A program made the position numbers and the translations under genes. This document shows positions 19,415-26,813 of a stretch of DNA of 55,826 nucleotides, piece by piece (positions within the stretch are counted from its first letter, which is position 1; the number at the start of each line of letters is the position of its first letter). The DNA is from Spirogloea muscicola (taxonomy: Eukaryota), in assembly GCA_009602725.1 (NCBI GenBank), contig WELB01000002.1, positions 1,832,445 to 1,888,270 of the forward strand. Reading direction: 5' to 3'. A model generated the notes under the pieces. That model was not told the origin of the DNA and ran no database searches. It worked only from the letters and a program-made list of their open reading frames with translations.

Positions 19415-22400
19415 ATGGACTGCCGAGACGGCGCAGCGCAACCGACGGACGACGACGCCGTGTGCAACGAGCCGGTGGACTTCCTCCACCTCTTCGACCG
19501 CAATGTAGCTGCCGCGCCTGCCAAGGTGGCATGCCTCTGGGTGGACGACAACGGCGATGCCGTCAAGGCTGTCACGTACGCCCAATTGCAGGTAAGATGC
19601 TTCTATATTAGAATTCAGCTCAGACAGACACCCTTGCCCCAAGCCTGTATTTGGTAGCAGGGGCTCTCTGCACATGGTCAGGCAAGAAAGAGCTACAAGT
19701 CCACCTCATGGTTGACCCATGATGCTCATTGTAGTGCACTTGACCTCCTCCCAGCTCCTTCTTGTCACAAAGACCTATATGTATGGGAGAATCCATTCTA
19801 TGTGCAGACCACCTCCTTGGACATCAGTCACGCTCTGCTGGCAAGATGGGGCGCAAAACCCGGCGACAGGGTGGTGTTGATTTATCCCCCAGGCCTGGAG
19901 TTTCTGGAGGCGTTCCTTGCCTGCCTAAGATCTGGTCAGATGTCACATCTCACCCAACTGCCATCTTCTGAGTAGCCTGGCGTAGGCAGCCTGCATGCGA
20001 TATAATTGCTCCTTGTAATGACCTGGGCCTCCTCGAGCTCCCTTCTGCTCATCACGCTTCCCATTGCTGACACGCTTTTACTGAGTGGGCCCTGAGCTGC
20101 TCAGATTGCGACTTCTTCGCAATAATAATGCACCTAAGAAGTTCGCATGTACAATTGCTTGACCCTTCTAGCTGCTCTTCATGTCATTAGCCGCTTCCAT
20201 TGTATAAGAAGATAATACGGCATTGTGATATGCATGGGCGAAGTGGTGTTGACGTACTTTTATAACCCAGCTTGCCATGTCGTTGCACGTTCTGCAGGTA
20301 TTATTGCTGTGCCGGTCTACCCCCCAAATCCCTCCAGCCTATCTGTAGATATTCCCAAACTTCGACGGGTTGTAAAAGATGCTGGCGCTTTGCTGATACT
20401 GACATCCCATGCTTATAGTCGTCTACGCAAGCTCACAAGGCTTCTCCACCGCTGGCCCGGCAGAAAGTGGAGATCGACCGACAACGTGAAGGTTGGACTT
20501 GTACCTTTTGAAAATGCACTCTATCGCTCATCAGAAGCTACAATGTGTTTATCACTTTCTTGAGGAAGAGATGATTTTAGCAAATCGAATGGAGTTGCTA
20601 GAGTCTCAGCATAAAGAGCAACTTCGCCTTGACATTTAGTGATGTACCTTAATACACGAACTTCACTCAGCTTGCAAGACCATTGGGTCGTACATGGTGG
20701 TGCTTGCAGAGGTCCCCGGTTGTCGGAGCAGCAAAGGGGCTGACGGAGCATCGAGTTGGCGGATACGCATTCCTCCAATACACGAGCGGCTCAACGGGCG
20801 AGCCAAAGGGCGTTGTGATCAGCTGGCAGGGCATTGCACACAACACGTATGCAATCCGCAGGTGCGATCTTGGCAGCAGCGCTCTTTCAGTGCCCGTACG
20901 GGATTAATGTCGGACGTTTGAAGCGGAGATTGTCAATGCTCATGTTTGGCAGCAACCCTCAGCGGACGCATGTGACTATGCAGCTAGCGCTACTTGCATC
21001 CCAATATTCTGGGTGATCACACCTCGCTTGATGCAGTGTATATGTTGGTGTCGAGCTAATCAATAGAGAAAGAACGAGTAAGAGGAGTCTGAGTCAGATC
21101 GTATCAGCCTAAAATGATGATGGTGCACCATTTTGCAGGACATTAAGGGTACGAGCAAGCAGTCGTATCTTCAGTTGGCTTCCACAGTACCACGACATGG
21201 GCTTGATTGTTGCATACCTGAACACCCTTAGGTAATCTCATGCTTCACTTTTCAAACATCATCGCGCTTCCCGGTTCATAGCACTCAAGGCGCCAGGGGC
21301 CTCCTCCAGTATCTCAAATATATATATTTGCCACTTGCAAAAACAGACCCCTGTACCAAATTGCTGTGCCTCATCTTTGACAGGATCTGCTCGAAACCAC
21401 TTTTGGTTTGCATCTCATGGGGCCTATCGTGATTTCCTACCATGCCTGTTGCAACGACTTAGTTGAGTGTTGCAGCTGGCATCTGTGAGAACAGCGCGGG
21501 GGCTGGAGGGGTGTACATGTCGCCTGCAGCTTTCATCAAGCAACCAAACCTGTGGCTGGCACTTCTGACTAAATATCGATCGACTCACACCTTCTCTCCC
21601 AACTTCGGACTAGAGCTGTGTGTCCGAAAATTCGACTCCGGGTCAGCTGCGCCCTACAACCCACAGTTGCATAGTAGCACAAAGCGCCTCCGTACTTAGC
21701 AATGAATCTTAATTGCTCGCCCCTACTTTTGGGCTGGCAATTGGAAAGTACCCGATTTTGTGAAGCTTACGTACTAACTTATCTTGCAGTCTATTTCAAT
21801 CTTACCTGGTCGCTCTTTCTGTTGTTCAGCCGTTTTGCAGATGGCAGCTTGGACCTATCATCACTGCAATGTCTGTTGAATGGAGCCGAGCCTATTCGGG
21901 AGGACACCATAGCTCGATTCAACAATGCCTTCAAACCGTATGGCTGGAAGGTATGATGAGGATCTGATCTACAATCACATTCCGGGTCCCCCGGAGCTTG
22001 CTAGTGCCTGCTCTGTCTGGACATGTCAAACAGATCCTCGCAAGTGCATTGTCACTGTTTGCCTGAGGCAGCTGCGCATGTGAGTACATGCGAATGTAGC
22101 CTGTCTGTAATACTCTGCTTCTCCTCGCACAGCCCAGCAGCTTGAGCACGTCCTACGGCTTGGCAGAGCACACTGTTGGAGTAAGCGCCTGGGGTACGAA
22201 GACGACAAGCAGATGCTCCACGGAAAGGACCTGCAAGGTAGGCTTACGTCTCCACTGTGAAGGGCTTTCAAGAGCTTGTCTGGATATGGTTTGCAGACCA
22301 AATTTTGGAGCATCTCATAGCTGATCTGTACCATAACCAAAACTCTTTCAGTAACACCAAAACTTTCGCAGGATCTCGACGTCCTCACTTTGTCACAATC

Positions 22401-25400: not shown

Positions 25401-26813
25401 GCTGCTTGGACTGCGGCCCAATGTCAACAGGGTCATGCTGCACATGTTGGGCTGTTACGCCGGCGTCACTGGCCTGCGGATCAGCAAGGACCTTGCCGAG
25501 AACAATGCGGGTGCCCGGGTCCTGTTTGTCTGCTGCGAGCTCAACAGCCTGACGTTTCAGGTCCAAGGAGATTGATTGCTGGTCAACCTAGTCATTTCAC
25601 CGGGCTCGAACGCAGCCTTGCTATTGTATTGCATGTCTCATCCTTCCTGTAGGAGTACTGAAACTTGCGATCCATTAATCTGCTGCAGTCTCCTGATGAC
25701 GACATGCCAGACAACATTGTCACGGCAGCTCTCTTTGGAGATGGGGCAGCTGCAGTAGTCATTGGAGTTGGAGCCAAGGTGAGTGGACGTACTCTCACGA
25801 CAGGCACTTCAGCTGCAGATGTACAGCACTGTACACAACAGGACAACCTTAAATGTGCCTATACCCTGCCAGTTCAAGGATGGCAAATGGTTTCATCCTC
25901 CACAATCTGACTTGCGTTTTGCCTACATGTTCTTCTGCTCTGATTGTGATTGCCACTGCTGATCCTGGTTTAAGCAGCCGCTTGACCTGCTGTTGACAAA
26001 ATATTGTGCCGCCTTACCTTCTGATGCTGCTGCACTTGCGTCCGAGTGCATGCTAGGCTGGCGAGGCAAAGCCCATGTTTGAGATCACGCAGACTTCGGA
26101 GCTATTCCTGCCAGACACGGAGGACTGCATCAAGGGCGAGCTCAATGACTCAGGCCTCCTCGTGCACCTATCCAAGGAGGTACGCAAGAGCATAAGACAG
26201 TGCTGCACTCGAAATCAGAAGCCTCAAGTTGCAACCACCTCAGGTCTGCTAGTATGTAACATTCCCTTGCAGTATGATGAGTGTATTCCATGTTTCTTAA
26301 TGTAGTTGTTATCAGCCGCTCGAATTTGCAATCCATGTACGTGAGTGCTCCCGCAGGTGCCGTTGCTGCTCGGGCAGCCAACCCGGGACCACTGTGCGGA
26401 GCTGCTCGGTGGCGTGGGCGTGCACTTTGATGACATCTTCTGGGCTGTGCACCCCGGTGGCCCCGCCATCCTGGACGTGATTGAGCGCCGCTGCCAGCTA
26501 AACTGCGACCAGCTACGCTCCAGCAGGTGCACTGGCTTCACCCACACTTGGCGACCACCCTTAGCAGAGATTGTATTTCAGAGGGCTTCATATCATCTCA
26601 AGCACGCTGCACCACCCCTGTTGGCGACCATGCAGGGCGGTTCTGGACGAGTTCGGCAACATGTCAAGTGCCTCTGTGCTCTTCGTACTTGACAAGATCT
26701 GGCAAGAGTCGAGAAAGTCGAGTGGCGATCGCAGCACTCAGCTGCAATGGGGCCTCGCCCTTGGCTTCGGGCCGGGCATAACAATTGAGGCCGCGTTGAT
26801 GCGACGCTTATAG
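19415..26813 (+). CDS. fused fatty acyl-AMP ligase (FAAL-like) - ACP - type III polyketide synthase (about 22 exons)
   Basis: FAAL motifs: [112 protein letters not shown] exon 23982-24191 has LGLSSL. PKS motifs: [41 protein letters not shown]. The ACP-to-PKS splice is in frame with no Met in the linker. The FAAL-to-ACP join needs a phase-0 donor; candidates exist (e.g. 23758). Confidence 0.8.

Follow-up and report, generated by a model that had tools for sequence, protein, structure and literature searches.

Does one nuclear gene of a green alga encode a fatty acyl-AMP ligase (FAAL), an acyl carrier protein (ACP) and a type III polyketide synthase (PKS) in a single chain? The question is raised by positions 19415 to 26813, plus strand, of a 55,826-nucleotide stretch of Spirogloea muscicola DNA (contig WELB01000002.1, positions 1,832,445 to 1,888,270), the whole of which is called the window here. 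The favoured reading, held with moderate confidence, is that the locus encodes one protein of about 1,090 residues in the order FAAL-ACP-type III PKS, predicted to load its own fatty-acid starter without acyl-CoA. Plant-type type III PKSs generally stand alone and use CoA starters, and a natural self-priming enzyme from the algae most closely related to land plants would bring ACP-based priming into the plant-type family. The logic of such a relay is known and the architecture is uncharacterised; here it has a plant-type PKS as its base.

Domain composition and gene model

The 22-exon model of the locus encodes a product of 1,091 amino acids without internal stops. All 21 introns are GT-AG and measure 109 to 363 nt, a range that includes the two junction introns of 224 nt (FAAL-ACP) and 137 nt (ACP-PKS). 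The main features are as follows.

19415..26813, plus strand: predicted FAAL-ACP-type III PKS gene, 22-exon model built from the window.
19415..23757, plus strand: FAAL-type adenylation domain, exons 1 to 13 (Pfam AMP-binding; best NCBIfam and PDB matches are FAALs).
19415-19591, 19808-19934, 20298-20491, 20710-20861, 21139-21231, 21495-21641 and 21830-21950, plus strand: exons 1 to 7.
22133-22237, 22416-22526, 22697-22867, 23023-23171, 23283-23448 and 23674-23757, plus strand: exons 8 to 13.
23674..23757, plus strand: exon 13 with the A10 motif KTTSGK and its catalytic Lys at 23695-23697, kept in all 12 aligned green-lineage FAAL relatives.
23758..23981, plus strand: predicted FAAL-ACP intron of 224 nt with the weak donor ACC/gtaaca; acceptor 23981 is used in three annotated copies.
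23982..24191, plus strand: ACP exon, helices I to III (Pfam PP-binding, 21.4 bits against a cut-off of 20.8).
24108-24110, plus strand: predicted phosphopantetheine Ser in LGLSSL, the sole invariant column across 17 of 17 carrier domains.
24329..24617, plus strand: exon 15, with ACP helix IV (ISDLRKLD), a Ser-rich Met-free linker and the first PKS strand in one frame.
24491..26813, plus strand: type III PKS (Pfam Chal_sti_synt N and C, motif map, active-site table).
24808-24914, 25042-25102, 25310-25560, 25689-25778, 26057-26179, 26357-26526 and 26636-26813, plus strand: PKS exons after the rest of exon 15.

Pfam scanning of 20 exon pieces, each on its own, returned AMP-binding, PP-binding, Chal_sti_synt_N and Chal_sti_synt_C. 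The boundaries of exons 7 to 9 were picked by comparison with relatives; another exon 8/9 boundary, with donor 22194 and acceptor 22371, was dropped because the relatives favour WG[T/S]K...LHSSG. The N-terminus is acidic and unlike a transit peptide, so that a cytosolic location is predicted for the fusion protein.

By profile and by predicted structure, the ligase is FAAL-like. FAALs head the named NCBIfam models (E 1e-96 to 1e-77, each under its bacterial family cut-off), the olefin-synthase FAAL domain 7R7E (E 2e-91) is the closest PDB entry by sequence, and in both profile and PDB comparisons the domain is nearer to FAALs than to acyl-CoA ligases or the A domains of nonribosomal peptide synthetases. 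W230, M237 and F285 are spaced, as judged by motif and spacing with no direct alignment, like the CoA-blocking residues W224, M231 and F279 of the Escherichia coli FAAL (available part of PMC8460268). The predicted structure also presents the FAAL-specific helix, at residues 258-263, and its top whole-model fold match is PDB entry 3TSY. The FAAL-specific insertion is short and doubtful: 46 residues separate YGLAE from IVDP, where the median of 146 others is 54, the pLDDT there is below 50, and the length hangs on the exon 8/9 choice. The catalytic A10 Lys is encoded in exon 13, whose presence in the fused mRNA is only predicted.

The predicted model of the ACP contains helices at residues 14-21, 43-57, 63-66 and 71-81, giving a four-helix fold in which the Ser starts helix II. 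Its best Foldseek match is the fatty-acid-synthase ACP 2cg5_B (E 4e-4, rmsd 1.5), and a wide structure search (VIA) retrieved almost exclusively entries whose titles name carrier proteins or the enzymes that contain them, at a moderate best Z of 7.3. The splice that leads out of the ACP exon (AAG/gtgaac...ctgcag/ATC) is in frame. ISDLRKLD aligns with the last ACP helix of relatives (VGDLRAID, IGHLRAVD) in an ungapped alignment spanning the splice; helix IV of the ACP model (71-81) starts at the first residue of exon 15 and corresponds to a helix at 642-650 in the whole-protein model. The Chal_sti_synt_N match begins within the same exon, 24329-24617, which contains no in-frame ATG. Because the last ACP helix and the first PKS strand share an exon, the ACP-PKS join is well supported, and the fusion of these two domains, like the three domains themselves, is real.

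The PKS contains a complete catalytic triad (Cys 25453, His 26450, Asn 26658) and a GFGPG motif at 26763. In chalcone-synthase numbering, assigned by alignment to the protein P0059, it retains Thr197, Phe215, Gly256 and Ser338, but positions 132 and 265 are Val, position 194 is Asn and position 211 is Thr; the Val at 265 would make the entrance wider. An intron at 24618 interrupts the Cys codon of KRIC, presumably at the site where plant chalcone synthases have a conserved intron. The initial annotation had named the FAAL exons, the ACP exon with its Ser, a type III PKS with an intact triad and the in-frame splice at 24329, and all of these were borne out.

The probable junction between ligase and carrier protein

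A search of EukProt with one PKS exon retrieved three Spirogloea muscicola proteins (P0001-P0003) with 100, 99 and 96% identity, each annotated with AMP-binding and chalcone-synthase domains and thus as a ligase-PKS fusion. P0001 spans 7,399 nt, the exact length of 19415-26813. The three copies, which we take to reflect genome triplication, are 93 to 96% identical to each other in the FAAL and PKS core and 87 to 91% in the ACP exon. In P0003, the carrier motif has a Pro directly after the Ser, and this copy may be impaired. The fused models show that a gene finder also joined these parts, which is not transcript evidence. One PKS exon is read in the wrong frame in all three and ligase exons are dropped in two of them.

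The FAAL-ACP splice through donor 23758, judged from the sequence, is likely but unproven and is the weak point of the model. Left unspliced, the FAAL frame continues for 35 codons past 23757 to a stop at 23863-23865, as the initial annotation had described. Several observations weigh against the splice and against a self-loading enzyme. The phase-0 donors after the A10 motif (23758, 23764, 23800 and 23824) all lack G at -1 and +5, a combination seen in none of the 27 other donors of the fusion gene and the adjacent cytochrome P450 gene. With a donor model built on only these 27 sites from two genes, donor 23758 scores -3.0, where true donors score -4.2 to 6.9, and falls at the 62nd percentile of 208 intronic GTs. 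The annotated copies pair acceptor 23981 with donor 23449 and so skip exon 23674-23757 in three of three cases, with loss of the catalytic Lys. The ATG at 23988 lies in a good start context (A at -3, G at +4). The carrier motif reads S-S-L instead of the canonical D/H-S-L, and across the copies the ACP exon has diverged more than the FAAL and PKS core. Finally, the PKS keeps the chalcone-synthase-like Thr197, Gly256 and Ser338, so that a long-chain starter is not evident from these residues. As to the skipping of exon 13, the annotated models misread a PKS exon too and are therefore poor guides.

The composition of the DNA speaks for splicing near 23758. The third codon position is G or C in 18 of 28 codons of exon 13 and in 10 of 35 after 23757 (Fisher P 0.006), the latter fraction also departing from the coding-sequence mean of 0.63 (P 5e-5). 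The match to green relatives runs out at ILN, a single codon ahead of donor 23758. A GC content of 0.62 to 0.69 and 26 to 55 CpG per 401 nt mark four gene starts in the window, whereas the surroundings of ATG 23988, with a GC content of 0.49 and 16 CpG per 401 nt, resemble gene bodies (median 15). Among 377 proteins, fetched as top matches and not a census, the ACP exon has only four non-self matches, all of them ACPs of green-algal FAAL relatives. Since the closest ligases are green-algal FAAL(-ACP) proteins and the ACP matches only theirs, FAAL and ACP derive from one ancestral didomain gene. This ancestry, the shift in codon composition at 23758 and the absence of a gene start rich in GC and CpG ahead of the ACP favour one gene, and the case is strengthened by the ACP helix that crosses the second splice and by the three fused gene models. 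Shorter proteins covering the junction region comprised 41 distant matches and no Spirogloea fragment. A 30-nt mini-exon at 23859-23888 was not adopted, as it would require a pair of weak donors and introns smaller than all others here. The splice proposed by the initial annotation thus stands in part: its acceptor recurs in three annotations, whereas its donor is atypical and all three skip exon 13. Likewise, the proposed self-loading enzyme agrees with the domain identities and the logic read from sequence and models, but its FAAL-ACP splice is not established.

The alternative that survives best, although unlikely, is one transcription unit with two products. Exon 13 would serve as an alternative last exon, giving a free 634-residue FAAL that loads an ACP-PKS in trans, and skipping of exon 13 (23449 to 23981) would give a fusion of 1,063 residues with a ligase devoid of the A10 Lys. 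The strong donor 23449 shares its frame with acceptor 23981, the skip is the path taken by all three annotations, and no consensus donor follows the A10 motif. However, the 35-codon tail is intron-like at third codon positions, the skip intron would measure 533 nt and exceed all 28 modelled introns (maximum, 378 nt), and a ligase without its last strand and helix, kept before the PKS, is hard to rationalise.

It is improbable that the fusion is recent or decaying, with the ACP as a passenger and the PKS working on ordinary acyl-CoA starters. The non-canonical S-S-L motif, the Pro after Ser in one copy, the lower ACP conservation, the stand-alone state of the closest PKS relatives (Closterium) and the CoA-binding Lys55 and Arg58 retained in the PKS would all suit it. 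Yet these two residues are needed for malonyl-CoA too, Ser or Thr before the carrier Ser is common to green didomain ACPs and to a Physarum fusion, the ACP fold is intact in the predicted model, and the architecture recurs in unrelated lineages, suggesting a use. A pair of neighbouring genes has only a slim chance of being correct: in it, a FAAL would end at 23865 and an ACP-PKS of 490 residues would begin at ATG 23988, the two acting in trans as in a bacterial cluster. The weak FAAL-ACP donors, the good start context and the Met kept in all three copies agree with this reading, but the gap from stop to ATG is only 122 nt, no GC/CpG-rich start region precedes that ATG, a typical gcag acceptor lies in phase 6 nt upstream of it, and relatives carry FAAL and ACP in one chain. 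The chemistry of the FAAL-to-ACP-to-PKS relay is identical in three of the four readings, the single FAAL-ACP-PKS protein among them.

Relatives and probable origin of the fusion

Ligase and type III PKS matches occur together in 12 of the 377 proteins, namely the three Spirogloea copies and nine others. Eight of these nine have the order FAAL-ACP-PKS, with the ACP match under the Pfam cut-off in one: the Physarum polycephalum transcript product P0246 and the environmental proteins P0131, P0132, P0173, P0199, P0297, P0299 and P0376. P0246 is a transcript-derived FAAL-ACP-type III PKS of 1,117 amino acids and is apparently undescribed; the main text of the Physarum genome paper contains none of the terms polyketide, chalcone, PKS or type III. 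P0325, whose cluster-mate is from Percolomonas, has 2,522 amino acids in the order FAAL-ACP-KS-AT-methyltransferase-ACP-type III PKS and is a Steely-like hybrid with a FAAL loading module.

In a quick ligase tree of 40 chosen rows, the window protein falls among green-algal FAAL(-ACP) didomains (SH-aLRT 99) and the other fusions among bacterial, stramenopile and separate protist rows; a single clade of all fusions is rejected (p-AU 7e-72). PKS trees of 42 and 24 chosen rows place the window PKS with Closterium and land plants (100; 100/99), and they do not reject one clade of all fusions (p-AU 0.10). An independent origin therefore follows from the ligase tree, since the PKS tree alone does not reject one clade. 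Two Closterium strains carry the FAAL-ACP and PKS relatives on contigs of different lengths, so that the two are neither fused nor adjacent there. The fusion likely arose within zygnematophyte algae, where a FAAL-ACP didomain gene joined a plant-type PKS gene, and its origin is likely independent of the fusions of similar design found in amoebae, in other protists and probably in bacteria. Because the fused ligase is sister to the other sampled zygnematophyte ligases, an older fusion may instead have been split later in Closterium. Scans of named genomes with P0297 (18 loci) and of metagenomes with P0003 (80 kept loci) gave a type III PKS match at none of the 98 loci, so that these scans yielded no named bacterial fusion. 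The repeated and independent emergence of the architecture would mark it as an overlooked minimal assembly line and as a candidate single-gene catalyst for alkylresorcinols or alkylpyrones.

Related FAALs also occur fused to acyltransferase PF03982 or to PF01756-type oxidase domains (P0160, P0163, P0175, P0176 and P0178), and FAAL(-ACP) units may be mobile loading modules in protists. P0238 from Cymbomonas tetramitiformis, a predicted protein of 4,818 amino acids, contains 12 type III PKS-matching stretches with near-identical repeats, which could be a true tandem array or could stem from an error of annotation or assembly.

Predicted chemistry and comparison with known systems

In the favoured single protein, exon 13 would be spliced to exon 14 via the weak donor, and the Ser at 24108 would be phosphopantetheinylated by a host transferase. 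The FAAL would then form an acyl-AMP and move the acyl group to the ACP, with CoA kept out by its pocket residues. Transfer of the acyl group to the PKS Cys and two or three extensions with malonyl-CoA would yield alkylpyrones or alkylresorcinols, as is well established for type III PKSs that act on long chains. The adjacent P450 could then hydroxylate the product. The neighbouring features are as follows.

15345..18351, minus strand: cytochrome P450 gene, eight exons, about 548 amino acids (Pfam p450; stop-free exon chain).
From about 27318 onward, plus strand: glycyl-tRNA synthetase exons, downstream of the fusion gene; an ordinary neighbour.
44536-44772, minus strand: HORMA-domain exon; an ordinary neighbour.
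13861-14166, plus strand: weak 2Fe-2S match; an ordinary neighbour.

The P450 gene is apparently intact, contains a GC-AG intron (CAG/gcaagt at 16586) and lies head-to-head with the fusion gene, with about 1,060 nt between the start codons. From its position, it is a possible tailoring partner. More tentatively, and with a low likelihood, the two genes could together supply hydroxylated alkyl polyketides to a resistant wall by a pathway that needs no starter CoA, convergent with the sporopollenin pathway of land plants. If so, the stand-alone zygnematophyte FAAL-ACP didomains would be loading modules for the type III PKSs of these algae; a self-priming fusion would also suggest a role for these uncharacterised proteins. 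Algal resistant walls occur without the ASCL marker (PMC11316218), and the fusion is a candidate for their chemistry.

The same 2024 paper lists as fusion proteins three type III PKSs of Spirogloea that fall in neither the ORS nor the ASCL clade, and it stars further fusions in Chromera, Seminavis, Ochromonas, Vischeria and Cladosiphon, the partners being unnamed throughout (PMC11316218). We infer that its three Spirogloea proteins are the products of the three genes described here. Stand-alone and didomain FAALs, and one pathway ending in a type III PKS, are described in the available part of PMC11837247. A FAAL-ACP-type III PKS protein had no description in the literature searched, whose coverage leaves out most subscription papers, and the parts seen of PMC8460268 and PMC12820801, with some of the supplements, do not mention this three-domain architecture. 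The novelty supposed by the initial annotation is accordingly narrowed: the three-domain protein seems undescribed, but its order recurs in Physarum and seven environmental proteins, the fusion is already in public gene models, and the Spirogloea fusions had been flagged without their partners.

Among known systems, bacterial pathways share the relay and differ in its packaging. In the alkylresorcylic acid pathway of Myxococcus xanthus, a FAAL reportedly loads a fatty acid on an ACP that feeds a type III PKS. The cylindrocyclophane CylA pathway of cyanobacteria likewise leads from FAAL to ACP to type III PKS (available part of PMC11837247). In these pathways the three are separate proteins, whereas here a single nuclear locus rich in introns holds the parts, and the PKS falls with its land-plant and Closterium counterparts in the trees. 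The Dictyostelium Steely proteins also carry a type III PKS C-terminal to a carrier-bearing module that supplies the starter (available part of PMC3188802). There the starter is built by a modular type I PKS, while here a preformed fatty acid would serve; type I KS, AT or reductase Pfam domains are absent from P0001-P0003, which are therefore not of the Steely type. The engineered 4-coumarate:CoA ligase::stilbene synthase (PDB 3TSY) also joins an adenylating enzyme to a type III PKS, but it is artificial, CoA-based and without an ACP. The plant ASCL/PKSA-B and the bryophyte and charophyte ORS enzymes are likewise plant-type type III PKSs that take fatty acyl groups as starters and serve in the chemistry of walls or cuticles (PMC11316218), but they stand alone. 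Physarum P0246 and the seven environmental proteins have the same domain order as the Spirogloea fusion, with a PKS identity of 31 to 34% in the three FAAL-ACP-type III PKS proteins compared.

The zygnematophyte didomains P0121, P0122, P0125 and P0126-P0130 have long acidic linkers, a T/S-Ser motif and no known partner. As a group (Spirogloea P0121/P0123/P0379, Mesotaenium P0125, Closterium P0126-P0130; P0122), such FAAL-ACP didomains provide the closest ligase, at 43 to 50% identity for the top matches, and also the closest ACP, sharing the S/T-Ser motif and helix IV. They differ from the fusion in having no PKS and in the long acidic FAAL-ACP linker, which here is cut to about 12 residues.

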